Shown: positions 25,059 through 52,657 of the stretch, piece after piece
How the letters are laid out: every line of letters begins with the position of its first letter
How positions within the stretch are numbered: position 1 is the stretch's first letter
Assembly (NCBI GenBank): GCA_903861205.1
Contig: CAIOTC010000016.1
Coordinates: 10,243-74,242, forward strand
Source of the DNA: an uncultured bacterium
GTDB taxonomy: Bacteria; Patescibacteriota; Minisyncoccia; Phycocordibacterales; DATDWN01
Direction of reading: 5' to 3'
DNA length: 64,000 nt
Made by a program: the position numbers and the translations under genes
The notes under the pieces: model-generated
Databases searched by the model: none
Seen by the model: the letters and a program-made list of their open reading frames with translations, nothing else
What the model was told of the DNA's origin: nothing

Positions 25059-25091
25059 CTCCGGTCGCTGATTCACTTTTGATTCACCGAT

Positions 25092-25802: not shown

Positions 25803-25831
25803 GGTATTCTGTCCAACACAAGTAAAATAAT

Positions 25832-27115: not shown

Positions 27116-27119
27116 ATTT

Positions 27120-27578
27120 ATGCCACAGGAAATCGCCATCAAAAACTTAATATTCGTGGATTGCGAGGGACACGGACCGGCACCGACATTGAATGATCCG
27201 GTGGGTTTTGAATTTGGCGCGGTCGCGTATCCCTCAAAGCAAACATTTCATGGAACTGGGGCGACAAAAGAAACGTTTGAGGATTTCGACAAATGGATTT
27301 CGTCCGTGGTAGAGAAAGGTTTCAGGCCTCTATTTGTCAGTGATAATCCGGCATACGACTGGCAGTTCATAAACTATTACTTCCACTTGCATCTCGGCAA
27401 AAACCCGTTCGGCCACTCGGCACGAAGGATCGGTGATTTTTATGCCGGACTTGTCGGTGACTTTACCAATGCGAGCTCATGGAAAAAGCTACGGGTTACG
27501 GCGCATGATCACAATCCGGTAAACGATGCTATGGGTAATCTCGAGGCATTCGAGAGGATACTAAGCGGAGAAAGATAA
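27120..27578 (+). CDS. DEDDh 3'-5' exonuclease domain protein (DnaQ-like)
   Basis: FVDCEGHG (Exo I), VSDNPAYDWQFI (Exo II), HDHNPVNDA (Exo III, H-x4-D). Starts TAAatttATG directly after the ATPase stop. Confidence 0.6.
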   Translation: MPQEIAIKNLIFVDCEGHGPAPTLNDPVGFEFGAVAYPSKQTFHGTGATKETFEDFDKWISSVVEKGFRPLFVSDNPAYDWQFINYYFHLHLGKNPFGHSARRIGDFYAGLVGDFTNASSWKKLRVTAHDHNPVNDAMGNLEAFERILSGER

Positions 27579-27583
27579 AATAT

Positions 27584-27775
27584 ATGCCAAAGGAAATCGC
27601 CAACAAAATCAAAGGAGAGACTTACTACAAATGCGCTCATTGCGGAGATGAGATTTTTTGGAACACCCATAAAAAATTTACTTACTGCAAGTGCAAGAAA
27701 ATCTGGGTTGATGGTTGCGAGGATTATGTCCGGGTTGGTGGCAACGAGGAAGACCGTAAGGTGATCAAAAAATAA
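27584..27775 (+). CDS. Small zinc-ribbon protein (CxxC...CxC)
   Basis: YYKCAHCGDEIFWNTHKKFTYCKCKK. It shares its first about 27 nt with the flanking genes. Confidence 0.5.
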   Translation: MPKEIANKIKGETYYKCAHCGDEIFWNTHKKFTYCKCKKIWVDGCEDYVRVGGNEEDRKVIKK

Positions 27776-27779
27776 ATTT

Positions 27780-30101: not shown

Positions 30102-30105
30102 ATTT

Positions 30106-31584: not shown

Positions 31585-31585
31585 T

Positions 31586-32758: not shown

Positions 32759-32760
32759 TT

Positions 32761-33657
32761 ATGTCGACTATATCTGCAACAAGAAGAGGATTTTTATATC
32801 AAGATCGTTTTGCAACCGCGACCTATCTTGAGCAGTGGCAAAGTAAGAATATCAAGCAGTTTTTCATTGATTATCCATTACCAAATCAAAAATCAATTGA
32901 TGTCCGGCATATTGATGTTTTGGATCAAGAAAATGTATATGAGGTAAAATCTGGCGAAGAATTCAAAAAAGATAAGCGCAAAAAAGAGTCATCAGGGATA
33001 AGAGATGCACTAATAAACTTAAAAGAATATTTTGATTCAAGAAATTCATGTTTACTAAATTTAGTGATTCGAAAGGGTTTTAGAGGCAACATAACCACTT
33101 ATTGGGATCATATAACACAAGTTCAGACGCATTCTTTTTCACTACCGCAAACAAAAACTCAAGTTACGTGGTTGTTCAATAAATTACTATTACCTGGAAT
33201 TAATTCCCATAAAGAATTATTTGATTTTTGTAAAATCGTAAAAGTTGCTGACTTTGCTGACGACGAACCGAATAATGGCAATGATCCATTCCCAGATATT
33301 GATGACTTTGTTATGGGGAAAATAACGGATATAACGAAGGAATTTAACGCACAAGTGTCTTGTGTTGAATATCCAGATCAAATTTTGATGAATGACTTAT
33401 ATCACAAATGTAGATTATATGCTGGAACAGGAGAGGATGTGCATGAGATTTTTACTTCTATCATAATTGATTTTATTACACACAGAGTTTTTCTAGATGC
33501 AAACTATACCCCCAATTCAAATAGAGGTAAGAGTAGAGATGACATAAAGAAAGAAATCGATAAAAAAGTCAATCAATATTTGAATGGAAACTTGGCGGCG
33601 AATATGAATAGTACGAACGCAGATCCACGTCTTACAAACGAAGGAAAAACACCATGA
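32761..33657 (+). CDS. Uncharacterised protein with predicted PD-(D/E)xK-like nuclease core
   Basis: N-terminal helix RRGFLYQDRFATATYLEQW, then hydrophobic strand plus D (HIDVLDQ) and E-V-K (NVYEVKSGEE). Start is 3 nt after the hsdS stop; stop overlaps the next start (ATGA). Confidence 0.4.
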   Translation: MSTISATRRGFLYQDRFATATYLEQWQSKNIKQFFIDYPLPNQKSIDVRHIDVLDQENVYEVKSGEEFKKDKRKKESSGIRDALINLKEYFDSRNSCLLNLVIRKGFRGNITTYWDHITQVQTHSFSLPQTKTQVTWLFNKLLLPGINSHKELFDFCKIVKVADFADDEPNNGNDPFPDIDDFVMGKITDITKEFNAQVSCVEYPDQILMNDLYHKCRLYAGTGEDVHEIFTSIIIDFITHRVFLDANYTPNSNRGKSRDDIKKEIDKKVNQYLNGNLAANMNSTNADPRLTNEGKTP

Positions 33658-36600
33658 AAAAAATAACGAGCGGACAAGCTAATATAGCAGGAATAAATGC
33701 ACAAGCATGGGCTTCGATGTCTCTGTTTTTACAGTATTTGCGTGATCCACGATTTTCGCATATTCATCTCGAAGTACCTAACTTTCAAGACTTTAATCTT
33801 GTTTTTAATGATGGTCATAAAATTATTTGCGAATCAAAGGATAGAAAAGTTAATTTTAATTACGGACATTTAAGGCCTATCTTAGAGAATATAAACAGGA
33901 GCAAGGCTATTGGTGATCAAGATGAAATTCTTATCGTGTGTCGTAACGCAAATAAAAGCTTAATCTCTGACGTGGAGCATGTAAAGTATTTTGAAGAACT
34001 AAAAAATAAATTTAAGAAAAAAGGTTATGCCGGGACAGAAATTGCATTGCTTCCGAAGGTAAAATTTTGGGTAGTGCCACCCTCTTTTAATTCAGAGGTA
34101 ATTTATTCTTTATTTTCGGAATTAATAAATTTTTGGCTTCCTCCCGAGGATGTCAAGAGATTTATTGACAGTATTTTGATCCAAAAGATTTACAAAGGCT
34201 CGGCAAGTGGGGCTACTTATAGTCGTTCCGATATTCTTAAAGAAATAGAAGAATTCAAAAAAGAAGTTCAGAAAGGGAGTGATTATTTCAATTTACGAAC
34301 AAAGAAAGATAAGCAATTCAAGGAGCTAGAAAAGATTGTTAAGAGCAATGGAAAAGTCACTCTAGGGAGCCGTTCGCTTTCTGCTTTTTCAACCCGATGG
34401 GATTTAATGTCATTTGCGATGGATAGACTCAAGGCTAGGAGCGATCTTGATTTAAAAAAATGGGGTGATCTATGGCAGTTGAACCGGGTTTATTATTTTA
34501 CCTTCGGTATTTTCCACGTCTTTGAAGCCAACCTACAAACAGACAAAAATCGGAAGTATATTTTGGGCTATATAAAAAAATACACAAAAACAATCCGAGG
34601 TTTTTACCGATCTGATTTTTTTGATGTGGATGTCGTAAAGATTGTCACCAAAATTATAGAGGGGCCTGATGGTGAAAAATACTTCAATGATGCTTTTGCT
34701 ATCATCAAGGATTTAATCACTTTTAACGAAAAGGAGTTTTTCTATCTTAAGGATAGCGGTTATGATCGTGGCGAATGGGAAAAAGGAGAACTTTGTAAGC
34801 TCCTACATAAGATTTACACCCGTGCAGATGCGGTTCTGAAGCAAAAGATTTTCGATCTGCTTGTTTCGGGATTTAATGTCACAGAGGACGACGGAGAATT
34901 CATTCACCATGCACCGACTGATGTGTACGGGATACTTCGTGAATGGCTGGATGACGATTTCAAGGGCAGATTTAAGAAAATAGTGAAACTCGCCAGCGAT
35001 CAATATCAGCGTTACTACAAGAAATTTGGTAGCAAAATTGAGTTTAAGGGCTGGGAACATATGGGTGGAGGCACATCCTTTGGTCCGGGTGGCCACCATG
35101 TTGGGGATCGCCATTTTGTCGGCTTTATCCTTGCACCAGCTATTCGTAAATATTACGACACGGATAAAATTAAGGGGTGGAATTTTATCAAACAGCAGTG
35201 CATTACCACAACAGCAAAGGTCAGCAAAACGAGACCGGATTTTCTTAATCGCTCAGTATACGAAATAGTCTTAAGCCGTTATGCAGATTCCAATAAGAAA
35301 ATATCAAATGAGGCGTTTGGCATCTTGAAAGAGTTTATTCTTTCCAGAAGAGGCATACCCCACAAGACCGACTTAATCTACCAAGCGGTCGTTGGTTCTG
35401 ATATGCCGGATGAAAAAAAATGGAGACTGGTTGAAATTACCACTAAGAAATATGGGATACCGGTCAATCCTTTTGCCGAGCTGATAGTCACTGATCTTGC
35501 AAAGAAGAGTTACGGACCGGCAAAAACCACACTGAAGCAGTGGTTTGCCGATCCAAAGTATTATAAGAACTTCAGATTTGATCTCGACTCAGTTTCGAGT
35601 ATTAAGGCGCTCCTTGATAGCGACCTAACTTTTGCTGTCGAATTATTCAAGGCACTTATCACAAGTGACTATATAAAAAATGGAAAGAGCGACCACTTTG
35701 GTGCTTATACTGTCGCGGCTTTGTTAAACGATATCATCAGGAGAGATTACGCTATGGGATTGTCCATAATTCGCCTACTGGAGAAGGAGGAGAAGTTGAG
35801 CGATGACCAGCAAATTATTTATTCATTCAGCCTGTTCAACCATCACGGAAACGATGATTCAGATGATCAGGAATTGTTATTAAAAACATATGATGAAGTA
35901 GTTGACCCATTCTTAAAAAAATACAGCGATGATATCTCTAAAATCTGCCAAAGATTAACAGATGCCAATTGCAGAGAAGCTTTTGTTCAGTTTGCGGCTA
36001 GACTGGCGGTCAAGAAAAAAATGGCAGATGCATTAAGGATTGTTCGTACTTTCGTAAACGATCCCGATCCATATCTCCCAGGCAAAGACCCCCATGACCT
36101 CGAAGATAAATACAATGAGCATAAGAGCGTGATGGAAGGTAAAGAGCCGAGCTCAATTAGGTCGGTTCGTGGTTGGTGTGGTTGGGTTCTTATGAAATGT
36201 TCCGTTCTTGATGGACGAGATCAGGTTCCAGAAGTTATTGAGCTTACTAAAAAGTTAATCAACGATGAAAATTACTATGTGATTCACATGGCTTGTTTTG
36301 CTCTCGGTCAAATAGCAAGAAATCGCCTTACTGTTTTACCGTCTGATAAAAACACACTCTTTTTTAATGATGATAAAGAAAAAGCTCTCCGCATGGCTAA
36401 AGAAGTTGAGGTCATTGCTTTCGGCCTTTTGGACAGTCTTATTTCGTGGCTACCGTTAGTGCAGAAAGCTATGACCAAGAGTGTTTTGCATGTATTTGAC
36501 CCACTCAGAGCACTCAACGAAAAAGACTCGCTTAGACTTATAACCGCCCTCGCCAAACTTCCAGCTGACGCGACGGAGGAATCTGCCCCATTATTTGTTT

Positions 36601-37295
36601 TTTGTGCTGAATTCAGAAAAAATGCTTATAAGGACTGGCGATTTGGTATGCCTGGGTTATATGACGATCTTGGGCCGGAAAAATATGATGAGAAGAAATT
36701 TAAAGCTATTTTGATGGACACTATCAAAGAGCTACAAAAGAAGGACTCGGACAATTGTTTCCGGTTTGCTTCATCTGTTGAGCATGCAATGAGAGAAGCC
36801 TCACCAGAAAACGGCGAGCTCGAAAAGAATACAGAGATTGCTCTTGAATATCTCGATCTACTTTCAAATGTTTATGCCCATAATGTTTTCAACTTGATCT
36901 ATCAGATTATGGAGACAAAATTCGGTACTCCGGATAAATATGTTGAGAAGTGGTATAGCTTATTGATCAAATGTTTGAGTGTTGAAAAAGGATTCTACGA
37001 AGAGCAGGCTAAAAAAGGCAACATGGCAAATGTCTATTGGTATCCTGCTCTATATCACTCTCGAATAATGGAGTTAGTCCATGAAAAGCTTGGTCAAGAC
37101 AAATTTATGCAAGCGGCCAAGATATTCTTTTCTTTCCCGAAAGAACTCGATCTCCACGAGACAGCTAACTTGGTTTCAATTATCCAAGAGCTAGCGAAAA
37201 CCGATAAAGATGCAAAGGCGATTATAAAAACACTTATCGATAAAAATCCGAGCAAATATTGGTCGTTGAAAGATAAATCTAAAAAATCAAAATGA
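33654..37295 (+). CDS. Large (1213 aa) uncharacterised protein: N-terminal module paralogous to ORF 32761 fused to about 1100 aa of alpha-helical repeat-like sequence
   Basis: The N-terminus SGQANIAGINAQAWASMSLFLQYL...NLVFNDGHKIICESKDRK repeats the helix / D / E-x-K layout of the preceding ORF. The remainder has no recognisable catalytic motif. ATGA overlaps at both ends. Confidence 0.4.
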   Translation: MKKITSGQANIAGINAQAWASMSLFLQYLRDPRFSHIHLEVPNFQDFNLVFNDGHKIICESKDRKVNFNYGHLRPILENINRSKAIGDQDEILIVCRNANKSLISDVEHVKYFEELKNKFKKKGYAGTEIALLPKVKFWVVPPSFNSEVIYSLFSELINFWLPPEDVKRFIDSILIQKIYKGSASGATYSRSDILKEIEEFKKEVQKGSDYFNLRTKKDKQFKELEKIVKSNGKVTLGSRSLSAFSTRWDLMSFAMDRLKARSDLDLKKWGDLWQLNRVYYFTFGIFHVFEANLQTDKNRKYILGYIKKYTKTIRGFYRSDFFDVDVVKIVTKIIEGPDGEKYFNDAFAIIKDLITFNEKEFFYLKDSGYDRGEWEKGELCKLLHKIYTRADAVLKQKIFDLLVSGFNVTEDDGEFIHHAPTDVYGILREWLDDDFKGRFKKIVKLASDQYQRYYKKFGSKIEFKGWEHMGGGTSFGPGGHHVGDRHFVGFILAPAIRKYYDTDKIKGWNFIKQQCITTTAKVSKTRPDFLNRSVYEIVLSRYADSNKKISNEAFGILKEFILSRRGIPHKTDLIYQAVVGSDMPDEKKWRLVEITTKKYGIPVNPFAELIVTDLAKKSYGPAKTTLKQWFADPKYYKNFRFDLDSVSSIKALLDSDLTFAVELFKALITSDYIKNGKSDHFGAYTVAALLNDIIRRDYAMGLSIIRLLEKEEKLSDDQQIIYSFSLFNHHGNDDSDDQELLLKTYDEVVDPFLKKYSDDISKICQRLTDANCREAFVQFAARLAVKKKMADALRIVRTFVNDPDPYLPGKDPHDLEDKYNEHKSVMEGKEPSSIRSVRGWCGWVLMKCSVLDGRDQVPEVIELTKKLINDENYYVIHMACFALGQIARNRLTVLPSDKNTLFFNDDKEKALRMAKEVEVIAFGLLDSLISWLPLVQKAMTKSVLHVFDPLRALNEKDSLRLITALAKLPADATEESAPLFVFCAEFRKNAYKDWRFGMPGLYDDLGPEKYDEKKFKAILMDTIKELQKKDSDNCFRFASSVEHAMREASPENGELEKNTEIALEYLDLLSNVYAHNVFNLIYQIMETKFGTPDKYVEKWYSLLIKCLSVEKGFYEEQAKKGNMANVYWYPALYHSRIMELVHEKLGQDKFMQAAKIFFSFPKELDLHETANLVSIIQELAKTDKDAKAIIKTLIDKNPSKYWSLKDKSKKSK

Positions 37296-37804
37296 CAATC
37301 TTTTACATCATCATCGGCATTATCATAGTCACCGCTATAGTAATCGCTATCTCGCGTGGAGGTCTTGCTGATGTAGAGGAAAAAGCTAAATATCGCTATA
37401 ACCGCAAGAACTTTTTTCTTACTCGAGCGGAGCATGAATGCTACGACGCTCTCGTCGAAGCTGTCGGTGCCGAGTATCACATCTTTGCCCAAGTGCATTT
37501 GCCTACTTTGGTCGATCATACAGTTCGAGGACAGGACTGGCGTGCGGCTTTGGCGCATATCAATCGGAAGTCTGTTGATTTTGTGCTTTGTGACAAAGCA
37601 TATCTCTCGCCAAAACTTGCTATCGAGCTTGATGATAAATCGCACGAACGCGCGGACCGGCAGGAACGTGATCGTGAAGTAGAACGTATCTTGCGTGAAG
37701 CCGGTGTATCGCTCTTGAGACTTGAAAATCGCGGCAGTTTTAGCCCCAGCGAATTGGCTCAAAAAATCAAAGAGACACTTAACCCCAAGTCGACATCATT
37801 ATGA
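37292..37804 (+). CDS. Membrane-anchored DUF2726-like (nuclease-related) protein
   Basis: N-terminal TM. YRYNRKNFFLTRAEHECYDAL...IFAQVHL...DFVLCDK...AIELDDKSH matches the DUF2726 pattern. ATGA overlap with the upstream gene. Confidence 0.5.
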   Translation: MTIFYIIIGIIIVTAIVIAISRGGLADVEEKAKYRYNRKNFFLTRAEHECYDALVEAVGAEYHIFAQVHLPTLVDHTVRGQDWRAALAHINRKSVDFVLCDKAYLSPKLAIELDDKSHERADRQERDREVERILREAGVSLLRLENRGSFSPSELAQKIKETLNPKSTSL

Positions 37805-38274
37805 AAATCAACAACACATTCAAACTCATCATTTCGCTTATTATCCCGCAGTTGGCAGGAGGACTGGGTAGCTACTTTACCATCGGTTCGGTGAAAGATT
37901 GGTATCCGGTGCTGGAGAAGCCCGTTCTCAATCCACCGGCATGGATATTCGGACCGGTTTGGACGACGTTGTTTCTTTTGATGGGCTATGCACTTTATCT
38001 TGTCTGGAAGGACGAGAGTGGAAAAAGCAAAGGCCTGGCCTATTGGGCTTTTGGAATTCAAATGGTTTTAAACGCGCTATGGTCGATCATCTTTTTCGGC
38101 CTGCATAGCCCGGGCGGAGCACTTTTTGAGATGATTTTTCTTTGGCTAGCCATTCTCGCCACGATCATCGCTTTTGCTAAAATATCAAAACCGGCCGCAT
38201 GGCTCCTCGTGCCCTATATTCTCTGGGTCAGCTTTGCCGGGTATCTTAACTACGCCATCTGGGCATTAAATTAA
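37801..38274 (+). CDS. tspO: TspO/MBR family tryptophan-rich sensory protein
   Basis: Five TM helices with Trp/Pro-rich loops (NPPAWIFGPVWTTLF...AYWAFGIQMVLNALWSIIFF). ATGA overlap with the upstream gene. Confidence 0.75.
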   Translation: MKINNTFKLIISLIIPQLAGGLGSYFTIGSVKDWYPVLEKPVLNPPAWIFGPVWTTLFLLMGYALYLVWKDESGKSKGLAYWAFGIQMVLNALWSIIFFGLHSPGGALFEMIFLWLAILATIIAFAKISKPAAWLLVPYILWVSFAGYLNYAIWALN

Positions 38275-39033: not shown

Positions 39034-40128
39034 ATGATAGAAGTCGCAAATACAGCTAAAGACACTTTGCATAGCGATGAATACGATCGAGAGACGGTTG
39101 AGGAATGCCGTCGGCTTGAACAGCGTTTTAGTGATAAGGAAAAAGAGGGAGACAAACCAGCCCCTTGGTACGGCTTAACTCGTGATCTAGCCCTTTATGC
39201 TTTGCGTGGCGAGAGATATCGCCGGAAGGAAGAAACCATCGCCCGACGTAGGAATGCGATGGCTGAATATCACGAGAAGCTGGACAAAGCAAAACCGGCA
39301 TCAATTGTGTATTGTCTGGCATGCCGATCGCAGATGAATGTTGTTGAGAAGGATTTACGAGGGTTTGGTAAAAAAGAACAAATTCTATTCTATTTTCGCT
39401 GTCCGGAGTGCAACGAGATGAGACGATTCTTTGATAACGGTGAGGAATACCGGCCAGCTCCACCATCGTGCATTAAATGCAGTACTCCGGTTGATCAGAC
39501 GTTCAAACGAGAAGGTTCTAAGCTGATCCATTCTTACACATGCGCCAAGTGTGGCTACCACGAGGACGACGTTATTGATCTCGATGAGAAACCGAAGGCT
39601 CCCAAAATTGATAAAGACTTCATCAAAGACCGAGAGAAGTATTGCATGAGTAAAAAGGAGGGCGACGATTACGTTAACTGGATAGTCCTCATGGAGCTTC
39701 CGCAGACAAAAGAAATGCTGGAAAGATATTCAGACGATCCTAAAGCCGACGTTATAAGCCAGATTAAAAAATTAAACATCGCTCAAGTTGAGGCTCTTTT
39801 GAAACCGGCCGTTGAGAAGGAAAAGTATCAGGACCTAGTTTTCGGCAAGCCAGAAATATATCAAGGGACTGTTATCTTGCCGTTTACGATTCAAGATACT
39901 TCGGCCGATAGGAACGACTACGACAGCCAGCTTTTTCTTAAACGTTTGATCGACGAGGCACTCGGCGAGACTAACTGGCGTGCCATGAGCGATGACTTTG
40001 GTTATAAGCTTGGATTGCTTAACGGACGGATACGAGGCGTGGAGAGTGAGAAGGACTTGGCCGAGTTGGCAAGGGTGCGACAGAAAAAACAGGACAAAGT
40101 ATCCGGTTCGGTTGAGGACAAAAGTTAA
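39034..40128 (+). CDS. Multi-zinc-ribbon hypothetical protein (364 aa)
   Basis: Four CxxC pairs (CLACRS, CPECNE, CIKCST, CAKCGY). No other motif recognised. Confidence 0.45.
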   Translation: MIEVANTAKDTLHSDEYDRETVEECRRLEQRFSDKEKEGDKPAPWYGLTRDLALYALRGERYRRKEETIARRRNAMAEYHEKLDKAKPASIVYCLACRSQMNVVEKDLRGFGKKEQILFYFRCPECNEMRRFFDNGEEYRPAPPSCIKCSTPVDQTFKREGSKLIHSYTCAKCGYHEDDVIDLDEKPKAPKIDKDFIKDREKYCMSKKEGDDYVNWIVLMELPQTKEMLERYSDDPKADVISQIKKLNIAQVEALLKPAVEKEKYQDLVFGKPEIYQGTVILPFTIQDTSADRNDYDSQLFLKRLIDEALGETNWRAMSDDFGYKLGLLNGRIRGVESEKDLAELARVRQKKQDKVSGSVEDKS

Positions 40129-40511: not shown

Positions 40512-40594
40512 GGGCGAGTGGTGCAACTGGCTAGACACGCTAGTCTTAGGAACTAGTGGAGTAATCCTTGGAGGTTCGAATCCTCTCTCGCCCA
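40512..40594 (+). tRNA. tRNA-Leu (TAG)
   Basis: Acceptor gggcgag/ctcgccc, anticodon stem ctagt/actag with loop ctTAGga, long variable arm, T-arm gaggttcgaatcctc, discriminator A. Confidence 0.7.
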
Positions 40595-40627
40595 CAAAAT
40601 TTGAAACCGCGAAAGCGGTTTTAATTT

Positions 40628-40849: not shown

Positions 40850-42151
40850 ATGGCAACAACACCGCCAAGTCTTCCGCCGCCCAACACTCCAGTTGTGGCT
40901 ATTAGTTATGCTGCTGGAATTTCCGCGACAGCGTTGGTAACCAACTTGGTCTTCCTCGCTTTATCGGCGTCGATGATCTTCACAGGAGTATTTCTTGGAC
41001 AACATAAGTCCATCTCAACTCTTGTCACGATTAACGTGTTCTCGCTAGGTATTACGCTTTTGCTTTTGCAAGCAATACATCTCGGATTGAGTTTGCAGAT
41101 AGTACTGGAAAATCGTTCTGCCATGCTGCTCCGATTCGGAGCATACGCCGGAAACGTAAAACCTGGTCTGGTATATGTTATGTGGCCGCTCTATCAACTG
41201 ATTTCGGTTACAAAAAACATGATCGAGTTCGATATTCCGGATTCGCCAGAAAAAATATTTCACGGTGATCTCACCGAAGACACCAGTGACGGTGTTGTGC
41301 CAAAAGGCTACACACCGGCATTAAGAATTACATTTGCACCTCCGCAACCACTTGAAAAGGACAAGGATGGCTACGAGGTGACTATCAAGGATCCAATCAA
41401 GGGCGGTCAGGAGACAAAATCACTGATCATTCCCAAAGATGATGCCTATTACAAACGAAACACGACGGAAATTGAAGCCTCAGTCGGTTTTTGTGTGACA
41501 AACCTGCGAACTTTCTACGAAAAAATTGGGAGTGTAGACAACGCCAGCCGCAGCATGAACGATCATGCTGTCTCCGGTCTGAACAGTCGACTTCCAAAAT
41601 TCACATTAGCCGAAGCTTTGCTCCGACTCGACGAATTTGCCTTCGGTATGATAGAGGATCTGACTCAGTACTCCAACGATTGGGGTATCTGCGTGGTTTT
41701 CTTCCGCTTCAAACACCCCGGCGTTAGCCACACCTTAAACGCTGCTGTGTCCGGTGTCGCTGTTGCGGGCGAAAACCTGAAGACAACAAGGCTCGCGGCC
41801 GAAGGAATAAAAACAACGTTGACACAAACCGGTCTTGGCAAAGCAAATGCTGAGTTCGATCTCCTGTCAGCTAGAGGTCATGCATTAAAAGAAATGGCCG
41901 ATGTCGCGGCTACTCCCGGTGGCGCGCTCGCAATGACCGTCAACGCAACGCAGGAAGCATTAGTTGCGGCAAAAACCGTGATCGTTCCGACTGATAACAT
42001 CATGGGAATGATTGCCGGAGCATCAGGAATGCTCAAAAATATTCCGGATATACCAACCGCAAATCAGGATCAAACTCCTCCGAAAAAAGAGCAGGAGTAT
42101 GGAGCTGACGTGAAGAAATACGGTGGCAAGAAAGGAAAGGATAAGAAATGA
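40850..42151 (+). CDS. SPFH/Band-7 domain membrane protein
   Basis: N-terminal TM helices, then LRFGAYAGNVKPGLVYVMWPLYQLISVTKNMIEFDIP, the SPFH beta-region pattern. Lys-rich C-terminal tail. Confidence 0.55.
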   Translation: MATTPPSLPPPNTPVVAISYAAGISATALVTNLVFLALSASMIFTGVFLGQHKSISTLVTINVFSLGITLLLLQAIHLGLSLQIVLENRSAMLLRFGAYAGNVKPGLVYVMWPLYQLISVTKNMIEFDIPDSPEKIFHGDLTEDTSDGVVPKGYTPALRITFAPPQPLEKDKDGYEVTIKDPIKGGQETKSLIIPKDDAYYKRNTTEIEASVGFCVTNLRTFYEKIGSVDNASRSMNDHAVSGLNSRLPKFTLAEALLRLDEFAFGMIEDLTQYSNDWGICVVFFRFKHPGVSHTLNAAVSGVAVAGENLKTTRLAAEGIKTTLTQTGLGKANAEFDLLSARGHALKEMADVAATPGGALAMTVNATQEALVAAKTVIVPTDNIMGMIAGASGMLKNIPDIPTANQDQTPPKKEQEYGADVKKYGGKKGKDKK

Positions 42152-43323
42152 TTCCAATCCTAATCTTGATCGCTTTTGTGGCAGTGATTATCATTGCTAT
42201 ACGTAGATTTTTTCCAAAACTTGGATCGACGGAGGACCTTGATTCAAAACCAAAGCCCCCGTCTCAAAACAAACAAAACGAGGATGAGACTAAAGCGCCT
42301 GCAAAAACTCCACCAAAGCCTCGGTGGAAAACTTCGTGGAACTCTACATGGGCCAAAATCCAAGAAAATTGGCAGGTGCTAGCTGGTATAGTAATATGCC
42401 ACGTACTTCTGTTGATTTTCTTTTACCGCCGATTTGAGTGGTATAGAGATCTCTTTTGGTGCTGGCTCTATTGGTTTGATCACCTAGTGATTCTTGTCGC
42501 TCTTGTGTTTTTTCGCAAGCGCGACGATAAAGGCAAACCAACCAAAGAATTGCATGCGTTTGGAAGTTTAATGCTGGTTCTGCTTCTCATCGGAAATTGC
42601 TTTGCCTTGGCAGAGTGGAACTGGGGACCGCACGAAACTTGGTGGATGTTCAGCCCTTCGGCCTCACATTCTCCAAGCGTTCAAAACGAAAGGGCCCCCG
42701 AATCTCCCGTAATCTCCGCCAAGTTGTCAGCCGCGAATCCGGATGGCGAAATCAGGGTGCGGGAGTTCTGGGACAAAAATCCGCCAAAGGGTCCGGTGAT
42801 CGAAATCGCAAACGTCGCCTGGATGGAATCGGACTTTCAACAGTTCAATCCGACTGATAGGACAGAGCCGTTTATCCATGTGAACGATGACGGGAGTAAG
42901 GATATCGGAGTTTACATGATCAACGACGTCCAGTGGAAAAAAGAACTTGCTTCGCCGAAAATTCCACCCGAGATCAGGTCATACGATTTGACAACTTGGG
43001 AAGGAAATTTGGCGGCAGCACATTACCTCGAAAATAAGTACGGGGCAAAGAACTGGAGCACGTACGACGATGTCAGGCTCAGATTGTCTGGTGAGCCATA
43101 CACTAGAACCGCTCCGGTGGATGGTTGGAGTAAGCGTGTTTACGCTCACCCAGATATTGTCGTAAACATTTACGTCGACGGCGATGTGGTAGTTCGAAAC
43201 GACAAAGGCCAATTTTTCAAGGGCGGGCCAAAAATATTTCAAAACTATGGTCTGTCGAAATGGGTTCAGTACCAGTCCGCAACCGGACAGCCAGTAACAT
43301 TGTCCATAAAACCTTTCAAGTAA
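42148..43323 (+). CDS. Membrane protein with C-terminal lytic transglycosylase (VirB1/SLT-like) domain
   Basis: ANVAWMESDFQQFNP...GSKDIGVYMINDVQW matches the family-1 SLT/VirB1 ES-x-F-x-P...D-x-G-L-M-Q-I-N block. N-terminal TM segments. Confidence 0.5.
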   Translation: MIPILILIAFVAVIIIAIRRFFPKLGSTEDLDSKPKPPSQNKQNEDETKAPAKTPPKPRWKTSWNSTWAKIQENWQVLAGIVICHVLLLIFFYRRFEWYRDLFWCWLYWFDHLVILVALVFFRKRDDKGKPTKELHAFGSLMLVLLLIGNCFALAEWNWGPHETWWMFSPSASHSPSVQNERAPESPVISAKLSAANPDGEIRVREFWDKNPPKGPVIEIANVAWMESDFQQFNPTDRTEPFIHVNDDGSKDIGVYMINDVQWKKELASPKIPPEIRSYDLTTWEGNLAAAHYLENKYGAKNWSTYDDVRLRLSGEPYTRTAPVDGWSKRVYAHPDIVVNIYVDGDVVVRNDKGQFFKGGPKIFQNYGLSKWVQYQSATGQPVTLSIKPFK

Positions 43324-43330
43324 AACAAAA

Positions 43331-43366
43331 CCACGCAACCCGAACGGGATGCGTGGCTTTTTTTAT
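43331..43366. terminator. Bidirectional rho-independent terminator (ccacgca...tgcgtgg with flanking A/T runs)
   Basis: Lies between the convergent ORF 42148-43323 (+) and the pilin array (-). Confidence 0.65.
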
Positions 43367-43377
43367 TTTTTATTTTC

Positions 43378-43644
43378 CTACAACGTCAGGTTACTCGGCT
43401 TTGGGATCCCGAATGATGTCAGAACAAAATTTATGATGCCGTAGACCGAAAACATAATGACCATGCCGACAATCCCATATATTATTGCGTCTCTTGCCTC
43501 CGTTCTCTTGCTGTCGCCGGCTTCCAAGTTTAAAAACTTGAAAATGCCGTAAACAAAATACAAGAAAGAAAGCGCAAACAAAAGCAAGATGAGTGGATTT
43601 AGGATTAAATCACTGACCTTTTGAAGAAATGGGACAATTGACAT
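43378..43644 (-). CDS. VirB2/TrbC-like pilin-family small membrane protein (paralog 1, no signal peptide)
   Basis: Two hydrophobic helices around the charged loop EAGDSKRTEARDAIIYG. Same family as the five upstream ORFs. Confidence 0.4.
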   Translation of the reverse strand: MSIVPFLQKVSDLILNPLILLLFALSFLYFVYGIFKFLNLEAGDSKRTEARDAIIYGIVGMVIMFSVYGIINFVLTSFGIPKPSNLTL

Positions 43645-43657
43645 GCAGGATTATGGA

Positions 43658-44020
43658 TTATTGCAATGGAACCTGAGGGAGAGATCCGGGTATGGCAGTA
43701 CCCGTCAAGCCAGTTGCATTAACAAGAAACGTAACCAGACCGAATATTGCGATAATAACAACCAAACCGATAATACCCCAGAGCATAGCTTGCTTGCCTT
43801 CTTTTCGTTTTTCCTCATCACCGGCGTTCATAACGAATTTGACCACACCGTAGATGAAGTAGACGATAGCGACAGCGAACAAAATTGGAATGATTGTGCT
43901 GTTTATAAAGGTCAGTATCGTACCGCCAAAACTAGTTAAACTGCCAGCTACAGCTGACGGTGCCTGTGCAAGAGCCAAAACTGGACCAAATGCCAACAAA
44001 CCATAAATAATTTTTTTCAT
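43658..44020 (-). CDS. VirB2/TrbC-like pilin-family protein (paralog 2)
   Basis: Signal peptide MKKIIYGLLAFGPVLALA, then TM-loop-TM with NAGDEEKRKEGKQAMLWGI. Confidence 0.45.
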   Translation of the reverse strand: MKKIIYGLLAFGPVLALAQAPSAVAGSLTSFGGTILTFINSTIIPILFAVAIVYFIYGVVKFVMNAGDEEKRKEGKQAMLWGIIGLVVIIAIFGLVTFLVNATGLTGTAIPGSLPQVPLQ

Positions 44021-44145
44021 TTGTTAATTAATTATTAATAAAACTAATAATAGTAAACCTCAAAACACACCGACCACTTTTGATAAAGTTATGTATAAAT
44101 TATAATACTTGCCGGACTGCAAGACAAGAGACCTGTGGATAGCGA

Positions 44146-44523
44146 TTAACAACCTGGAATAGTCCATGATTCGGCTACATTGCAATTTGGATTACCACTT
44201 CCCACGCTTGGCTTTATACCTGTTGTATTTCCAATAAATGTCAAAATACCATAAATGGAAACAATGACAAAAAGCGCCACGATGCCCCAAAGCATGCGCT
44301 GTTTGCCTTCCTCGCGAGCATCCTTGTCATCGGCATGCAAAATAAATTGCGCCATACCCCAGAAAAAGAAAATCAGGGCTATACCGAAAACAATCGGAAT
44401 GGTCAGATTAATTAATTTTGTTGCTGATGTCAGCAAATCCGTCAGGCCTTGCAGGGCGGCGAAGGAAACGACTGGTGTGATAATGCTCAAAACAAAAGCG
44501 ATTGATATTATATTTTTTTTCAT
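44146..44523 (-). CDS. VirB2/TrbC-like pilin-family protein (paralog 3)
   Basis: Signal peptide, then IPIVFGIALIFFFWGMAQFILHADDKDAREEGKQRMLWGIVALFVIV. Confidence 0.45.
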   Translation of the reverse strand: MKKNIISIAFVLSIITPVVSFAALQGLTDLLTSATKLINLTIPIVFGIALIFFFWGMAQFILHADDKDAREEGKQRMLWGIVALFVIVSIYGILTFIGNTTGIKPSVGSGNPNCNVAESWTIPGC

Positions 44524-44536
44524 ATTAATAAATAAG

Positions 44537-44971
44537 TTACTTAATTTTTATTTGTGGCACAATCCCGCCAGTGTTGTCGATAAAGCGATTATCCGGAGTT
44601 GTCTGGTTACTTCCAGGCAAAAGCGGTTTGACAATGTCGTTTTTGCCGAAAAATTCGTTGGAAACTATGCCCAGAATACTGCGAACCGAAACAAGAACAA
44701 ACAGCACGACCGCGCCCCAGATCATATATTGCCTGCCGGTTTTTAATTCGTCTTTGTTGCCGGCGTTTATGAGAAATTTGGTCAAACCCCAGAAAAAAGC
44801 GATAAAACAGAGAACGTAAAGAATCGGAATGACCAAGTAGATCAGGTTAGTGGCTTCCTCGACAACGCCTTTAAACGTCATGCCACCGGTCGAAAGACTG
44901 AAATCGGCAAAAAGCGGAAGCGGAGTCAAGAAAAACAAAAATAATAAATATTTTTTCATTTTAATGGGCAA
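44537..44971 (-). CDS. VirB2/TrbC-like pilin-family protein (paralog 4)
   Basis: Signal peptide, then IPILYVLCFIAFFWGLTKFLINAGNKDELKTGRQYMIWGAVVLFVLV. Confidence 0.45.
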   Translation of the reverse strand: MPIKMKKYLLFLFFLTPLPLFADFSLSTGGMTFKGVVEEATNLIYLVIPILYVLCFIAFFWGLTKFLINAGNKDELKTGRQYMIWGAVVLFVLVSVRSILGIVSNEFFGKNDIVKPLLPGSNQTTPDNRFIDNTGGIVPQIKIK

Positions 44972-45377
44972 TAAAAGAATTAACTGTGGTTTGAACGACC
45001 GCCGATATTCCGGCCGCGCCGAGCAGAACCCCCGCGCCTATGAGCGCCCACAACAAATTACGATTTGCATCCTCGATGGCTTTTGGATTGCCTTGGGCTT
45101 GAACATATTTCCAACCGGCCCAGATGATATAGCAGACCACCGCCACCGCGGCGATAGGCATGATGATGTTGTTTAGGATGGCCGTGATAAGTCCCAGAAG
45201 AGTGCTGCAATCCTGGCCGTCGCATTTGAGAGGGTTTGATATGGTGATTTGTTGGTTAACAGGAGTAGGGTTGTTATCGCCCGCTGGATTGAGTTGGCCT
45301 TGGGAATAAGCGACAAAAGGCAAAATAAAAAATACAAGTGTTGAACAAAACAATAAAATTCCTTTAAATTTTTTCAT
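44961..45377 (-). CDS. VirB2/TrbC-like pilin-family protein (paralog 5, divergent, Cys-containing N-domain)
   Basis: Signal peptide, then IMPIAAVAVVCYIIWAGWKYVQAQGNPKAIEDANRNLLWALIGAGVLL. Confidence 0.4.
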   Translation of the reverse strand: MKKFKGILLFCSTLVFFILPFVAYSQGQLNPAGDNNPTPVNQQITISNPLKCDGQDCSTLLGLITAILNNIIMPIAAVAVVCYIIWAGWKYVQAQGNPKAIEDANRNLLWALIGAGVLLGAAGISAVVQTTVNSFIAH

Positions 45378-45388
45378 AAATAATTTAT

Positions 45389-45856
45389 TTACTTCATAAG
45401 ATTAGTTACTTTACTCGGATCCACCAGCGCCGTGACGATTAGGTTCACGATGAGCCATGCCGCCAGAACCCAGCCGATGCCCCAGGCCACCTTTTCGAAC
45501 ATTGCATTTGCTTTGGTTCTTTTGGCTGGTTCGCCGCCGGATGTCATATATTGCCAACCTGCCCAAGCGATAATGACCACCGAAAAGGCCAGAGCCAGGG
45601 CAACGACTGTGTTGATGACATTTTTGACGGCTTGGATGAGCTGAAAAAAGCTATCGCATGGCACTTCCTTACCGCTTTGTTGGCAACCGGTCACGATCCC
45701 GGACTGAAATGTCACTGTTCCTTGAGTCGGTCCGACTGGAATATTCTGGGCATATAAAACAAACGCTGGTACAAAAAACATTAGAAAAAATAACCCGCTA
45801 ATTATTATATTTATTTTGTATTTATTCGTAGCCATTCGTAGATTCGAATCATTCAC
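45389..45856 (-). CDS. VirB2/TrbC-like pilin-family protein (paralog 6)
   Basis: Signal peptide, then VVALALAFSVVIIAWAGWQYMTSGGEPAKRTKANAMFEKVAWGIGWVLAAWLIV. Confidence 0.4.
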   Translation of the reverse strand: MNDSNLRMATNKYKINIIISGLFFLMFFVPAFVLYAQNIPVGPTQGTVTFQSGIVTGCQQSGKEVPCDSFFQLIQAVKNVINTVVALALAFSVVIIAWAGWQYMTSGGEPAKRTKANAMFEKVAWGIGWVLAAWLIVNLIVTALVDPSKVTNLMK

Positions 45857-47848: not shown

Positions 47849-47892
47849 GGACTGCCCTTTGTATTTTTGGGTAATTGCTACAAAGGGCAGTC
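47849..47892. repeat. REP-like hairpin upstream of the RAYT gene (ggactgccctttgta ... tacaaagggcagtc)
   Basis: Perfect 15/14-bp inverted arms with a 15-bp loop. The unit tacaaagggcagtc recurs at 48579. Confidence 0.7.
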
Positions 47893-47910
47893 TTTTGTAT
47901 AATTATTGGT

Positions 47911-48567
47911 ATGAATAACAGAGACTACAAAGAATTTGCTTCCGGAGGTGTTTATCACATTTTTAACCGAGGTAATAATAAGGAAAACATTTTTCTTAAT
48001 GAAAATGATTATGGAGCCTTTCTTTTTAGATTAGCAATCTCTTTGGGTTTCGATATGAACGATCTTAAAAATTATAAGCTGATGTATTTTCCCTACTCAC
48101 GGATGGCAATTTCTGAAACTAGCAAAAACAATTTTAAGTTACATTCTTTTTGTCTCATGCCAAACCATTTTCACTTGGTTATCGAGCAATGTAAGGACGT
48201 GCCCGTATCAAAGCTAATTTCAAAAACTTGCACAAGTTATTCGATGTATTTTAATAAAAAATACACCAGAGTTGGGCACTTATTTCAAGATCGATTCAAA
48301 GCAGTTTTAATAGATAACAACCCCCAACTAATGTGGACATCATCATACATTCACATGAACCCGGTCAAAGACGGATTAGTAAAATCACCCGAAGATTATG
48401 TTTGGAGTAGTTACAGAGACTACACTGAAGAAAGAAATTTACCTATTGTGTCAAAAGAATTTTTACTGGAATTATTTGGTGGTGAAAAATTTTTAAAAAA
48501 AGAAACTTTGGCTTATTTTTCCAAAGAAAACTCTGCTATGATTGATATTCTTGATGATGATAATTAG
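47911..48567 (+). CDS. REP-associated tyrosine transposase (RAYT; IS200-like Y1 HUH transposase)
   Basis: HUH motif FCLMPNHFHLVIE and catalytic Tyr region SSYIHMNPVKDGLV...YVWSSYRDY. Flanked on both sides by REP-like hairpins. Confidence 0.75.
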   Translation: MNNRDYKEFASGGVYHIFNRGNNKENIFLNENDYGAFLFRLAISLGFDMNDLKNYKLMYFPYSRMAISETSKNNFKLHSFCLMPNHFHLVIEQCKDVPVSKLISKTCTSYSMYFNKKYTRVGHLFQDRFKAVLIDNNPQLMWTSSYIHMNPVKDGLVKSPEDYVWSSYRDYTEERNLPIVSKEFLLELFGGEKFLKKETLAYFSKENSAMIDILDDDN

Positions 48568-49015: not shown

Positions 49016-52000
49016 TTATAGGCAAATCAAACTGGCGATCGAGTCGCCGTCGCGGAGCTTCATGATGCGGACGCCTTGGGTCTGGCGGCCGAGAACCGGC
49101 ACTTCCTTGGCGTCGACGCGGATGACTTGCGATTTTTTGGACATGGCTACGATTTCCACTTCCTCGCCTTCGAAAACTTTGGCCGAAATGAGCGGGCCGG
49201 TTTTGGCGGTAACATTAGCCGTTTTGATACCGGAGCCACCGCGGTTTTGGATTTTGTATTCGTCGACATCCGAGCGCTTGCCGTAGCCGTTTTGCGAAAT
49301 AACCATCAGTGTCGGCACGTCAGACTCCTTGAGCACCACCTCGGAAGCAATAACGTAGTCTCCCTTGCCGAGCTTCATACCGCGTACGCCCATGGCTGTT
49401 CGGCCCATCTCACGGATGTCAGACTCTTTGAAATGAATCGATTGCCCCTTGGCCGTGACCACGATATTGGTGTCACCTTTCTTGACAAAGCTGGCAGAAA
49501 TAAGTTCATCACCCGCGTCGAGCTTGATAGCGATAATGCCGGAAATGCGCACATCGTGGAAGCTAGCCGCACTACATTTTTTGGCCACGCCGTGTTTAGT
49601 AACCATAAGAAGCGAAGCGTCGGATTTTTTGATTTCTTTCGGCATCGGCAAAATGGAGGTGATTTTCTCGCCTTCGGACAGTGGCAAAAAGTTCTGAACG
49701 GATTTGCCACGCGTCGCTCGCCTTCCCTCCGGAATATCATACATTTTGGTTTGGTAAGCCTTGCCTTTGTCGGTGAAGAAAAGCAAATCGCTGTGCGTCG
49801 AAGTGATGAGAAGCGTCGTCACAAAATCCTCTTCCTTTGTATCAAGATCCACCACGCCAACTCCCCCGCGTCGCTGTTTGCGGAATTCGTCCGGGTTGGT
49901 GCGTTTGATGTAACCACCGGCCGTCAGCACCAGCGCGTTTTCCTCGTCGGCGATCAAATCCTCCACCGACAAAACCGCTGCGCCGCCTTTGATGATTTTC
50001 GTTTTGCGCTCATCGCCGTATTTTTCCTTAATCTGTTTGCATTCGTCTTTGATGATGGCTAAAATTTTCTTGGCGCTGCCCAAAATGGCTTTCAATTCCT
50101 CAATCAAAAGTTGCACCGCTTTGAGTTCGTCCTCCACTTTTTTGCGTTCCAGTCCGGCCAAGCGCTGCAATTTCATTTCCAAAATAGCCGTGGCTTGGAT
50201 AGCCGAGAATTTAAACTCTTTCATCAAATTCCTGTGTGCTTCAGGCGTGTCTTTGCTGGCGCGGATCAGTTTGATGATAGCGTCGATATGATCGAGTGCT
50301 TTTTTGAGGCCGAGCAAAATGTGCTCACGCTCCAGCGCCTTTTTCAAATCATATTCCGTGCGGCGTTTGATAATTTCCTTTCGGTGGATGATAAATTCCT
50401 CCAAAATTCCCTTGAGCGACAATGTTTGTGGCACGCCGTTAACCAGCGCCACCATGTTGTAATGAAAAGCTTCCTCGAGCTGAGTGTGTTTGTACAAATA
50501 ATTCAAAACGGTCTGCGGATGAGCAGTGCCTTTGAGGTCGAGGACCACGCGAATATCCTCGGCCGATTCGTCGCGGATATCCTTGATGCCTTCCAATTTT
50601 TTGTCGTGAATGAGGTCGACAATTTTGACAATCAGATCGGATTTGTTGACGCGAAACGGAATGGAAGTGATGATAATCTGAAACTGGCCGGCTTTGTTTT
50701 CCACAATCTCGGCCGTTCCGCGCACCACCACGCCACCACGACCGGTCGAGTAAGCGTGTGCAATATCTTTTGCATTGAAAGCGATACCGCCGGTCGGAAA
50801 ATCCGGACCTTTGACAAATTGCAAAAGGTCTTCGTTGGTCGCGTCGGGATTATCGACAAGGTGTGTCAGCGCGTCCATCACTTCGCCCAGATTGTGTGGC
50901 GGAATGTTCGTGGCCATACCGACGGCGATTCCCAGTCCGCCGTTAAAGAGCAAATTGGGCACTCGGCTCGGCAAAACGGTCGGCTCTTTGCGCGTACCTT
51001 CGTAGTTCGGAATCCAATCCACCGTTTCCTTGTCGATGTCAGCCAAAAGTTCGCTGGTGATGCGGGACATTTTGGCCTCGGTATACCTGTCAGCCGCCGC
51101 ACCATCACCGTCGATCGAGTTGTGGACAAATACTCCCGCAGATAAAGCAAAGTTATGGGTGTCATCAACAGTCAAATCATAAACGTCTTCTTTCGCATCT
51201 AAAAATTCCACCCCAATAACCTTGTGATTATAGAATACATCCTTAGAAATTCGCGAGACACCGCCATTTGAATAATATTTAGGAAAAGCAGACCCCCATT
51301 TTGGAGCACTTCCGTAAGGGTACACTTCGTTTCTGTATTTTTCATATAAAATCTCGTCGATCAAACCTTCTTTCTCAATAACTCTTTTGCATATTGCCAA
51401 AAATTTTTTCTTGCCTGTCAGATTTGTGGTGTGATTCTTGTTTCCCTTCAAAATTTTATCGTGCATTAACACTCGATATTCCGGATCTTGCCACAATCTT
51501 TTCAGAGTTTTTGTAATGCGTTTACTTATAATTTCCCTTAGCTCAGGATGATTCTTGTAGTGATTTTTATTCACACGGCTAAGAGTTTCTCTCATATATT
51601 CGGCGTATTTCTCATCTTGCCAATTTTCAATATTTCTAGCTGACAGGCGCGCAGAATAAGCATCTCGATTTTTCTGATCAGACCAAAAATTTTCTCTTCC
51701 CTCTTTCAATCTCTGAACATATGTCTGATCATTTTTATGACGGTTCTTGGAAAGATTGGCATGCATCATCCAGTGGTCTTTCCAATGCATTCTTTGAATA
51801 TTGTCTGGATTTGAATTTAATTTATTGAAATCTTTGTGATGTCTGACTCGGCCGGCTGAAAGAGAATATTCCCCCATTATTATATTTAACTTATCGGCAA
51901 GGTGATGGGCAAAATCCCATTTATCATTTTTCGGCTGGAGTATCATTGGATATCCGATAAGTTCTGGTTTTGCATCAGATATGGCGGATAGTTTTTTGTA

Positions 52001-52657
52001 CAAAGGCATAAGAGAATCTCCTGTTTTTAATTCTTTAGCCTCCTTATATTTTCCGTCACGAAGCATAAATCTGTGATTTGTAGTGCAACGAATCTCTTTT
52101 CCATTATCAAGAACCACTCTCATAATTTCCGCGTTTTTGATCGTCAAACGAGGATTTCTTATTTTAGCGATTTTTATCAATCCGTTACTACCGACAGTAT
52201 ACGTGTAATTTTTTCTTCCTTGCTTTTCTTCTTCAATTAAATCGCTGAACGATAACGCGCGACCATCCGAAAGTTCCACCTTTGTATCTTTCGTAAAACA
52301 ACCAAAATTTCCCTGGCCGATGACCAACTTGTACCTCATCGAAAAATCCTGCGCCAAAACAACCAGCGCGCCGTAAGCGGCGGCTGTGCCGTGAGGATGA
52401 TAGTTACCGGTCACATCTCCGATGATTTTGGCCGATTTTCTGGTTTTCCCGCCGGCGGTCAGGCCGAGTTCGTGCATGGTGTAAAGGATCCTGCGTTGAA
52501 CGGGTTTCAGTCCGTCGCGAACGTTCGGTAAAGCGCGGTCGGTAATAACCGACATGGAATAGTCGAGAAAAGACTTCTTCATCTCGTCCGTAATTTCCCG
52601 GGGAATAACGTTGATATGGGCGGGTTTTATCGGTTCTGATTCTTCCTTTTTGGCCAT
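49016..52657 (-). CDS. gyrA: DNA gyrase subunit A interrupted by a 394-aa intein
   Basis: GyrA blocks [24 protein letters not shown], then GQGNFG | intein | [18 protein letters not shown], and the C-terminal beta-pinwheel repeats. Extein length is about 819 aa. Confidence 0.9.
51119..52300 (-). other. GyrA intein (mini-intein splicing blocks plus HNH homing-endonuclease domain)
   Basis: Begins with Cys ([13 protein letters not shown]), ends VFVHN followed by the +1 Ser. Internal HNH motif [31 protein letters not shown]. Confidence 0.8.

Follow-up and report, generated by a model that had tools for sequence, protein, structure and literature searches.

What does a run of six short genes for pilin-like membrane proteins do in a small bacterial chromosome, and do the two genes that face it belong to the same system? 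The locus that raises this question lies at 40850-45856 of a 64,000-nucleotide stretch of contig CAIOTC010000016.1 from an uncultured Patescibacterium; "the window" denotes this whole stretch. The window is a chromosomal segment of a small genome, with rpoB/rpoC, dnaG, infB, gyrA (with an intein), gyrB and thrS, and there is no respiratory or biosynthetic clutter among its genes. All eight open reading frames (ORFs) of the original prediction are present at their coordinates and form two convergent transcription units, namely a plus-strand pair encoding an SPFH/Band_7 membrane protein and a second membrane protein, here called X, and six minus-strand genes whose products are referred to as paralogs 1 to 6 (Table 1). 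We consider it probable that the locus is a Paceibacteria (Parcubacteria, Zambryskibacteria-like) case of the VirB2-like pilin arrays that have been described in Patescibacteria.

The six tandem minus-strand genes for two-helix pilin-like proteins are real (43378-45856). All six products match PF18895, the T4SS_pilin family of type IV secretion systems (T4SSs), with E-values from 5e-12 to 9e-5, and five pass its gathering cut-off of 26.6 bits, so that their proposed membership in a T4SS pilin-like family was borne out. Paralog 4 stays below the cut-off (22.9 versus 26.6 bits); it shares 42% identity with paralog 3, and its orthologs are members of the same related arrays as those of the other types. 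The best NCBIfam match of all six is NF045849, the Mbov_0395 pilin-like conjugal transfer protein of a Mycoplasma integrative and conjugative element; paralog 2 also passes the cut-off of that model (48.9 against 40 bits), and the remaining five score 13-38 bits. Hydropathy profiles show two long hydrophobic segments around a charged loop in every protein, and this loop is positively charged in all six. A signal peptide had been assigned to each of them. This is correct for five, which carry a Sec-type, cleavable-looking signal peptide, and incorrect for the 88 aa paralog 1, which begins straight at the first helix, as do its orthologs. Similarly, the loop motif AGDEEKRKEGKQAMLWG, thought to be conserved throughout, is literal only in paralog 2 (120 aa), recognisable in paralogs 3 and 4 (125 and 140 aa) and much looser in paralogs 1, 5 and 6. 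Pairwise identity among the six ranges from 15 to 42%, with paralogs 1-4 and 5-6 forming two subgroups. A hidden Markov model (HMM) built from related arrays revealed no seventh copy in the window.

Some of the paralogs have cysteine pairs. Types 5 and 6 have one in the extracellular part that precedes the first helix (e.g. KCDGQDC, GCQQSGKEVPC), and paralog 3 has one at its C-terminus. In paralog 6 the signal peptide is followed by an extracellular N-terminal stretch with the Cys pair and then by the two-helix hairpin. The pair is kept in the type 6 orthologs of three related loci (L005, L006 and L008) and in one of three type 5 orthologs (L005). The Cys pairs of types 3, 5 and 6 may form exposed disulfide loops.

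The relationship of the six genes to VirB2 itself is transitive. PF04956 (TrbC/VirB2; cut-off 27.9 bits) is not reached in the window, the best score being that of paralog 5 (20.1 bits, E 7e-4), which represents the type nearest to classical TrbC/VirB2. Among the members of related arrays, 65 of 66 match PF18895, and 13 of the 66 also match PF04956 at E <= 0.01, the best at 1e-7. The connection runs via the TrbC match of paralog 5 and via these matches in related arrays. We file the six genes under PF18895, as proteins presumed to work like VirB2-type pilins, and not as demonstrated members of PF04956. With the classical VirB2/TrbC/TraA pilins (PF04956; T-pilin, PDB 8cue/8exh) they share the layout of a long signal peptide and two hydrophobic helices joined by a basic loop; to this come the sub-threshold TrbC match of paralog 5 and TrbC matches as good as 1e-7 in orthologous arrays. 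They differ from classical VirB2 in that their direct profile match to it is not significant, that there are six genes instead of one, that the host is monoderm, that no virB3-virB11 genes are adjacent, and that there is no sign of cyclisation or a pilus.

The array recurs in a conserved neighbourhood. One genome per species was scanned with an alignment of paralog 5, which yielded 30 loci from Zambryskibacteria, Kaiserbacteria, Vogelbacteria and other Parcubacteria-type metagenome-assembled genomes. At 27 of the 30 the array (three to seven genes) directly follows a gene for a solute-binding protein (SBP), usually with a methyltransferase gene and an 820 aa gyrA upstream. An X-family gene comes after the array at 14 loci, and at 10 the SPFH profile matches the gene that follows; Blast ties in further, more divergent SPFH/X pairs. 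Homologs of the SPFH gene at 65%, 48% and 39% identity are likewise followed by X, the pair facing five or six pilin genes, and, contig permitting, an SBP-type gene, a 175 aa methyltransferase gene and gyrA precede the pilins. In the window, the SBP-like gene is separated from paralog 6, downstream of it, by only 12 nt; it probably shares a transcript with the pilin array, and its orthologs carry SBP_bac_1 and SBP_bac_8. The first gene of the facing plus-strand pair had been called SPFH, and this call holds, with a Band_7 match (E 2.8e-9) of 37.7 bits against a cut-off of 23.6; its homologs are named HflC/stomatin-like by the Joint Genome Institute (JGI).

Not only the neighbourhood but also the order within the array is maintained. 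Paralogs 1-6 of the window pair in order with genes 1-6 of L005 and L006, and in L008 only type 1 is absent from the called genes. Identity on the diagonal of these comparisons (window versus L005, L006 and L008) is 41-66%, and off the diagonal it is mostly 20-40%. Type 1 is the best conserved of the six (59-66% in L005 and L006); ortholog identities are 45-46% for type 2, 45-53% for type 3, 43-48% for type 4, 50-58% for type 5 and, in L005, L006 and L008, 41-50% for type 6. The same five or six types make up the array in most Zambryskibacteria-like loci, and among the compared arrays there was no sign of lineage-specific duplication or homogenisation. One-to-one, ordered orthology across distant genomes implies that the paralog set is old, that each type has been kept and that the duplication of the pilin types is ancient. 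Old and stable types with traits of their own argue against a fast-diversifying antigenic repertoire and for distinct structural roles. The original prediction had taken the array as a sign of antigenic or functional diversification, a proposal that loses ground since each paralog has a positional ortholog in distant genomes; paralogs that are fixed, ordered and individually conserved favour a heteromeric structure over antigenic variation. For comparison, window proteins and their orthologs are 62-65% identical for the SBP and 69-80% for the methyltransferase, and the SPFH proteins of the compared genomes are about 40-70% identical. At amino-acid identities of 15-66%, synonymous sites are saturated, and a dN/dS ratio for the paralogs or their orthologs would carry no meaning.

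The array has only one sizeable gap, ahead of the 120 aa gene (a 113-120 aa type in relatives), and this gap contains a promoter-like sequence with a DnaA-box-like element. In the window it consists of CTATCCACA (44142-44134), a -35 hexamer TTGTCT (44127-44122) and a -10 hexamer TATAAT (44104-44099), and it scores 10 of 12 in a promoter scan. The conserved arrangement is TTATCCACA (the DnaA-box consensus, represented by CTATCCACA in the window), 5-6 nt, CTTGT, about 17 nt and TATAAT; it is invariant across four genomes, and the rest of the spacer is variable. Box, -35 and -10 are found in the same intergenic gap at 16 loci counting the window, and the box is at the same position in L005, L006, L008, L010-L015, L017, L019, L020, L023 and L025. 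The 9-mer usually occurs as a single exact copy per 9-20 kb locus, compared with about 0.2 copies expected by chance. The conserved promoter in the gap marks the last two genes as a separate unit, and paralogs 2 and 1 are probably expressed separately and strongly. The element suggests control by DnaA or by another factor. Because these two genes have a conserved strong promoter of their own, paralog 2, which also fits the family models best, is the best candidate for a major subunit. The window has two more exact copies of the box, one at 8560 (+) and one, 65 nt ahead of thrS, at 60395 (+).

At the other end of the array, the stop codons of the two convergent units are separated by a GC-rich hairpin (stem CCACGCATCCCG...CGGGTTGCGTGG, about 43331-43357) that has T-runs on each strand and is a probable bidirectional intrinsic terminator common to both units. 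It was not among the sites listed by a consensus terminator scan, and an Rfam scan gave no match in the locus, with tRNAs elsewhere in the window only.

Table 1. Coordinates of the features of the locus and of X orthologs from which the lysozyme-like domain is missing. Positions refer to the window unless a related locus is named.
Feature	Position	Strand	Basis
SPFH/Band_7 membrane protein, 433 aa	40850-42151	+	PF01145
Protein X, 391 aa	42148-43323	+	lysozyme-like fold and motif
Hairpin between the two convergent units	43322-43375	both	inspection of the sequence
Pilin paralog 1, 88 aa	43378-43644	-	PF18895, 32.2 bits
Pilin paralog 2, 120 aa	43658-44020	-	PF18895, 46.1 bits, E 5e-12
Internal promoter ahead of paralogs 2 and 1	44099-44142	-	promoter scan and conservation
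Pilin paralog 3, 125 aa	44146-44523	-	PF18895, 40.8 bits
Pilin paralog 4, 140 aa (from MKKYLL start)	44537-44959	-	PF18895, 22.9 bits, E 9e-5
Pilin paralog 5, 138 aa	44961-45377	-	PF18895, 27.9 bits
Pilin paralog 6, 155 aa	45389-45856	-	PF18895, 28.6 bits, E 1.5e-6
Membrane-anchored SBP-like gene, 428 aa	45869-47155	-	weak MalE match, E 8e-7
X ortholog without lysozyme-like domain	L012:11987-12406		
X ortholog without lysozyme-like domain	L013:12078-12884		
X ortholog without lysozyme-like domain	L014:12472-13167		
X ortholog without lysozyme-like domain	L017:12043-12699		
X ortholog without lysozyme-like domain	L019:11856-12623		
X ortholog without lysozyme-like domain	L025:11836-12465		

Arrays of this kind have been catalogued before, which removes the novelty implied by the original prediction. 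Quiñonero-Coronel et al. (2025, PMC12102498) described 441 VirB2 arrays of 2-11 genes in Patescibacteria, with a mean identity of 25% and a maximum of 54%, which are abundant in Microgenomatia and Saccharimonadia. VirB4 was present in 2,417 of 3,035 Patescibacteria assemblies in that survey, and VirB2-like genes, detected with the same two Pfam models (PF18895 and PF04956), were present in 1,948 VirB4-containing assemblies, near virB4 in 1,135 and away from it in 813. Like the published arrays, the one studied here consists of divergent, tandem, PF18895/TrbC-like genes on a chromosome with no relaxase nearby, and the identity among its members fits the published mean and maximum. In the Saccharibacterium Southlakia epibionticum ML1 a series of predicted pilins in a T4SS cluster is essential (Wang et al. 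2023, PMC10633639; PMC12857230); its array is located inside that cluster, whereas the window has no T4SS gene within 64 kb. We thus regard the locus as another member of the known arrays, from a Parcubacteria-type lineage and detached from virB4. There is a good prior chance that a VirB4 is encoded elsewhere in the genome, given that 2,417 of 3,035 assemblies possess one and that 813 of 1,948 keep their VirB2-like genes apart from it. The additions made here are modest and comprise the stable orthology of the paralogs, the conserved neighbourhood, a cryptic lysozyme-fold protein and a promoter element. The gyrA-methyltransferase-SBP and X/SPFH context, the one-to-one orthology and the DnaA-box-like promoter are not mentioned in PMC12102498 and PMC10633639; the text of the former contains no occurrence of SPFH, solute-binding or gyrA.

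Protein X had been proposed to be a VirB1-like transglycosylase on the basis of an ES...GxYMIN block. In the 391 aa protein this block spans residues 227-259 (ES 227-228, D252, GVYMIN 254-259), and the idea of a lysozyme or transglycosylase holds at the level of fold and motif; it found no support in a Pfam SLT profile search. X has no Pfam match at E <= 1, SLT (PF01464) and Lys (PF00062) included, and no NCBIfam match. In a word-indexed database of 5.8 billion proteins it finds itself only, and a profile query adds one ortholog. Its relatives were reached through the neighbours of SPFH homologs and through an exhaustive HMM search. A profile of four orthologs matched 88 c-type lysozymes in the PDB with E-values from 0.013 upward, in an alignment that spans the catalytic Glu to the N-x-D-G-S-x-D-x-G-x-x-Q-I-N block, and hhalign against hen lysozyme gave a probability of 79%. 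The exhaustive search among 1.84 billion representatives returned 218 family members, about 70 of them full length. Many of the 218 are short, core-only proteins, and some of these match Pfam SLT, Lys or SLT_3 (e.g. the short distant member P0102, with 24.8 bits against the SLT cut-off of 21.3). Glu227 is conserved in 81 of 88 aligned sequences, Ser228 in 84 of 88, Asp252 in 63 of 82 and Trp303 in 87.

With this 88-sequence alignment AlphaFold predicted residues 200-390 of X at a pLDDT above 90; the single-sequence prediction (pLDDT 45) was unusable. The protein comprises four membrane helices, a disordered linker, a lysozyme-like domain (residues ~198-315) and a double-stranded beta-helix domain (~318-390). 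According to the model, X carries a lysozyme fold in which the first long helix ends in the E-S motif with its catalytic Glu, and its C-terminal 70 residues are predicted to form a small, cupin-like double-stranded beta-helix. From the positive-inside pattern the lysozyme-like domain would be placed outside the cell. A muramidase and a lytic transglycosylase are indistinguishable by sequence in this domain. As an NfeD-type SPFH partner X was considered and rejected, since it has no PF01957 match and its C-terminal domain is cupin-like and not an oligonucleotide/oligosaccharide-binding (OB) fold. The gene pair resembles the SPFH-NfeD operons (e.g. YuaG/FloT-YuaF, QmcA-YbbJ), in which an SPFH gene is translationally coupled to a gene for a multi-helix protein with a small C-terminal beta domain; here the start of X overlaps the SPFH stop codon by 4 bases (ATGA). 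From the specialised lytic transglycosylases of secretion systems (VirB1, IagB/IpgF, EtgA; PDB 4xp8) and the c-type (GH22) lysozymes X is set apart by the missing Pfam SLT or Lys match, the four membrane helices, the cupin-like domain, the coupling to SPFH and a gene position that is convergent to the pilins and not within a virB-type operon.

The enzyme domain of X is not universal in its family. Among 17 scorable X orthologs (the window and 16 distinct loci, without L021, which is truncated by its contig end), the lysozyme domain is cleanly missing in six, which still have the N-terminal membrane part and the beta domain at the C-terminus (Table 1). The conserved core of the X family is therefore not the enzyme domain. 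The L008 ortholog is full length and has Val in place of the catalytic Glu. Domain loss in 6 of 17 orthologs, together with this replacement, makes it unlikely that pilin assembly has a strict and general need for VirB1-like wall cutting. The VirB1-like helper role suggested earlier is weakened by the same two findings and by gene orientation, X being convergent to the pilins in an operon of its own with SPFH and its domain being dispensable in some lineages.

Taken together, these data are compatible with the following model. The pilin-like proteins would enter the cytoplasmic membrane by Sec, with type 1, which lacks a signal peptide, using another route; signal peptidase would trim five of them, and all six would form a membrane pool. 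A VirB4-driven, monoderm-type T4SS, putatively encoded elsewhere in the genome, would extract the pilins and polymerise them into an envelope-spanning or surface filament for contact with host cells. The six types would be non-redundant parts of one structure, with paralog 2 (type 2) as the abundant major subunit and the others as minor, base or tip subunits; such distinct roles are most likely because every paralog has stayed distinct and in its place in distant genomes. The SBP-like protein, the SPFH scaffold and X are candidate accessory factors at the envelope, and their genomic association with the array hints at roles in surface sugar binding, membrane microdomain organisation and local opening of the cell wall, respectively.

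Several observations weigh against this assignment to a pilus. When the 66-sequence pilin profile was compared by hhalign with Agrobacterium tumefaciens VirB2 (sequence checked against PDB 8cue), the probability was 0.7% and thus not significant. A PDB search with the six-paralog profile matched nothing but a helical hairpin, that of cytochrome oxidase subunit II (CoxII), which indicates that sequence signal is weak for two-helix hairpins. VirB4, VirB6, VirB10 and VirD4 had been reported absent from the window, and this holds at the Pfam level for ORFs of at least 230 aa; a 1213 aa ORF at 33654-37295 is without any Pfam or PADLOC match. The 10 kb flanks around the 30 related loci showed no recognisable T4SS ATPase or channel gene and no P-loop protein of VirB4 size; ORFs of about 500 aa with a Walker A motif in these flanks carry the GHIDHGKS of translation GTPases, like the translation initiation factor IF-2 of the window. 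Moreover, no pilus has been seen in any Patescibacterium, and the published wording is "potential to elaborate conjugative pili" (PMC12857230). These points, and the close and very common pairing with an SBP-type gene 12 nt away, could be accommodated if the six were T4SS-independent membrane proteins unrelated to a pilus that form an envelope, transport or membrane-organisation module with SBP and SPFH/X, "T4SS_pilin" being a mere label. We regard this as unlikely. It leaves unexplained the membership in PF18895 and in NF045849, which was defined on a protein of a conjugative element, as well as the TrbC/VirB2 matches of 13 of 66 array members (best E 1e-7). Such genes adjoin virB4 in 1,135 assemblies (PMC12102498), and the pilins of S. 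epibionticum belong to an essential T4SS cluster (PMC10633639). In addition, no ATP-binding cassette (ABC) permease or ATPase gene lies beside the SBP gene in the window locus. A filament composed of interchangeable, fast-diversifying variants of a single subunit, serving antigenic or host-range diversity, is very unlikely in our view. A model of antigenic diversity has been proposed for the VirB2 paralogs of Bartonella and Anaplasma. The divergence of the six copies (15-42% identity) and the somewhat faster divergence of pilin orthologs compared with the flanking SBP and methyltransferase would agree with it, and the same idea has been offered for the Patescibacteria arrays (PMC12102498). It conflicts, however, with the positional orthology and the lack of recent duplication or homogenisation, with the recurrence of the same 5-6 types, and with the conservation of type-specific traits, i.e. 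the missing signal peptide of type 1, the Cys pairs and a promoter for paralog 2 only.

Even if the six proteins are pilins, the SPFH/X pair may have nothing to do with them and may be a general membrane module with a wall hydrolase for growth or division that is adjacent to the array by inherited gene order. This is a real possibility, to which we give slightly less than even weight. The two units are convergent and share a predicted terminator, the lysozyme domain is lost in 6 of 17 scorable X orthologs and its catalytic Glu is replaced in L008, and X evolves much faster than its neighbours, being the fastest-evolving protein of the block (28% identity where SPFH has 70%). Furthermore, because the synteny extends to housekeeping genes, namely gyrA and the methyltransferase gene, neighbourhood alone is no proof that the pilins are the partners of SBP, X or SPFH. 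Yet the pair stays against the array while the far side of the SPFH gene changes between genomes (tRNA-Leu and an island in the window, histidyl-tRNA synthetase in L006, enolase in L008), two genes inserted in L005 have not dispersed the block, and peptidase and lysozyme homologs beside virB4 are essential in S. epibionticum (PMC12102498). An extended form of the pilin-array reading would combine the six non-redundant pilins, an anchored sugar-binding protein, SPFH and X into a filament module that is separate from the VirB4 motor genes and whose major subunit is wired to DnaA via the conserved box of the internal promoter; as a whole we hold this to be distinctly unlikely. If it were true, Paceibacteria would possess a split, chromosomally fixed apparatus for host contact in which the wall-cutting domain of X is optional, and the epibiont would couple the assembly of its contact organelle to its own state of growth and replication.

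Few systems have been proven essential to the life of a Patescibacterium on its host, and the T4SS with its pilin series is one of them. In this context the DnaA-box-like promoter provides a directly testable regulatory link, and the lysozyme-fold protein beside the array is an example of one that escapes the standard VirB1 and SLT models. The features described here can be used for annotating Parcubacteria genomes and for picking targets of structural or expression studies.

A few observations concern the surroundings of the conserved block. In L005 the insertion between X and the pilin array (L005:3493-5842) comprises genes for a 546 aa multi-helix membrane protein and a GT2 glycosyltransferase, which could hint at glycosylation of surface components. 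A gene for an IS200-like Y1 transposase of the REP-associated type is located between the methyltransferase gene and gyrA (47875-48567, +) and also in L005 (10424-11083). It looks domesticated or long-resident, given that a relative with an SPFH protein of ~65-70% identity has it at the same site. The window GyrA (1213 aa; 49016-52657, -) contains an intein (Intein_splicing domain, residues 129-513), and related genomes have an intein-free gyrA of ~820 aa in the same place.

On the far side of the SPFH gene, the region 21303-38274 beside tRNA-Lys (21324-21400) is a probable integrated island. It encodes a large serine recombinase, the type I restriction proteins HsdR and HsdM, a DUF2726 nuclease-like protein and an AAA_14/DUF4143 ATPase of the PADLOC system PDC-S01 with an exonuclease-like "effector", in addition to a 298 aa and 1213 aa gene pair that matches neither Pfam nor PADLOC. 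At 32-36 kb the GC content is down to 0.36-0.39. A gene flanked by the island and tRNA-Leu (40512-40595) encodes, at 39034-40128 (+), a 364 aa protein that matches no family and has several CxxC motifs resembling zinc ribbons.

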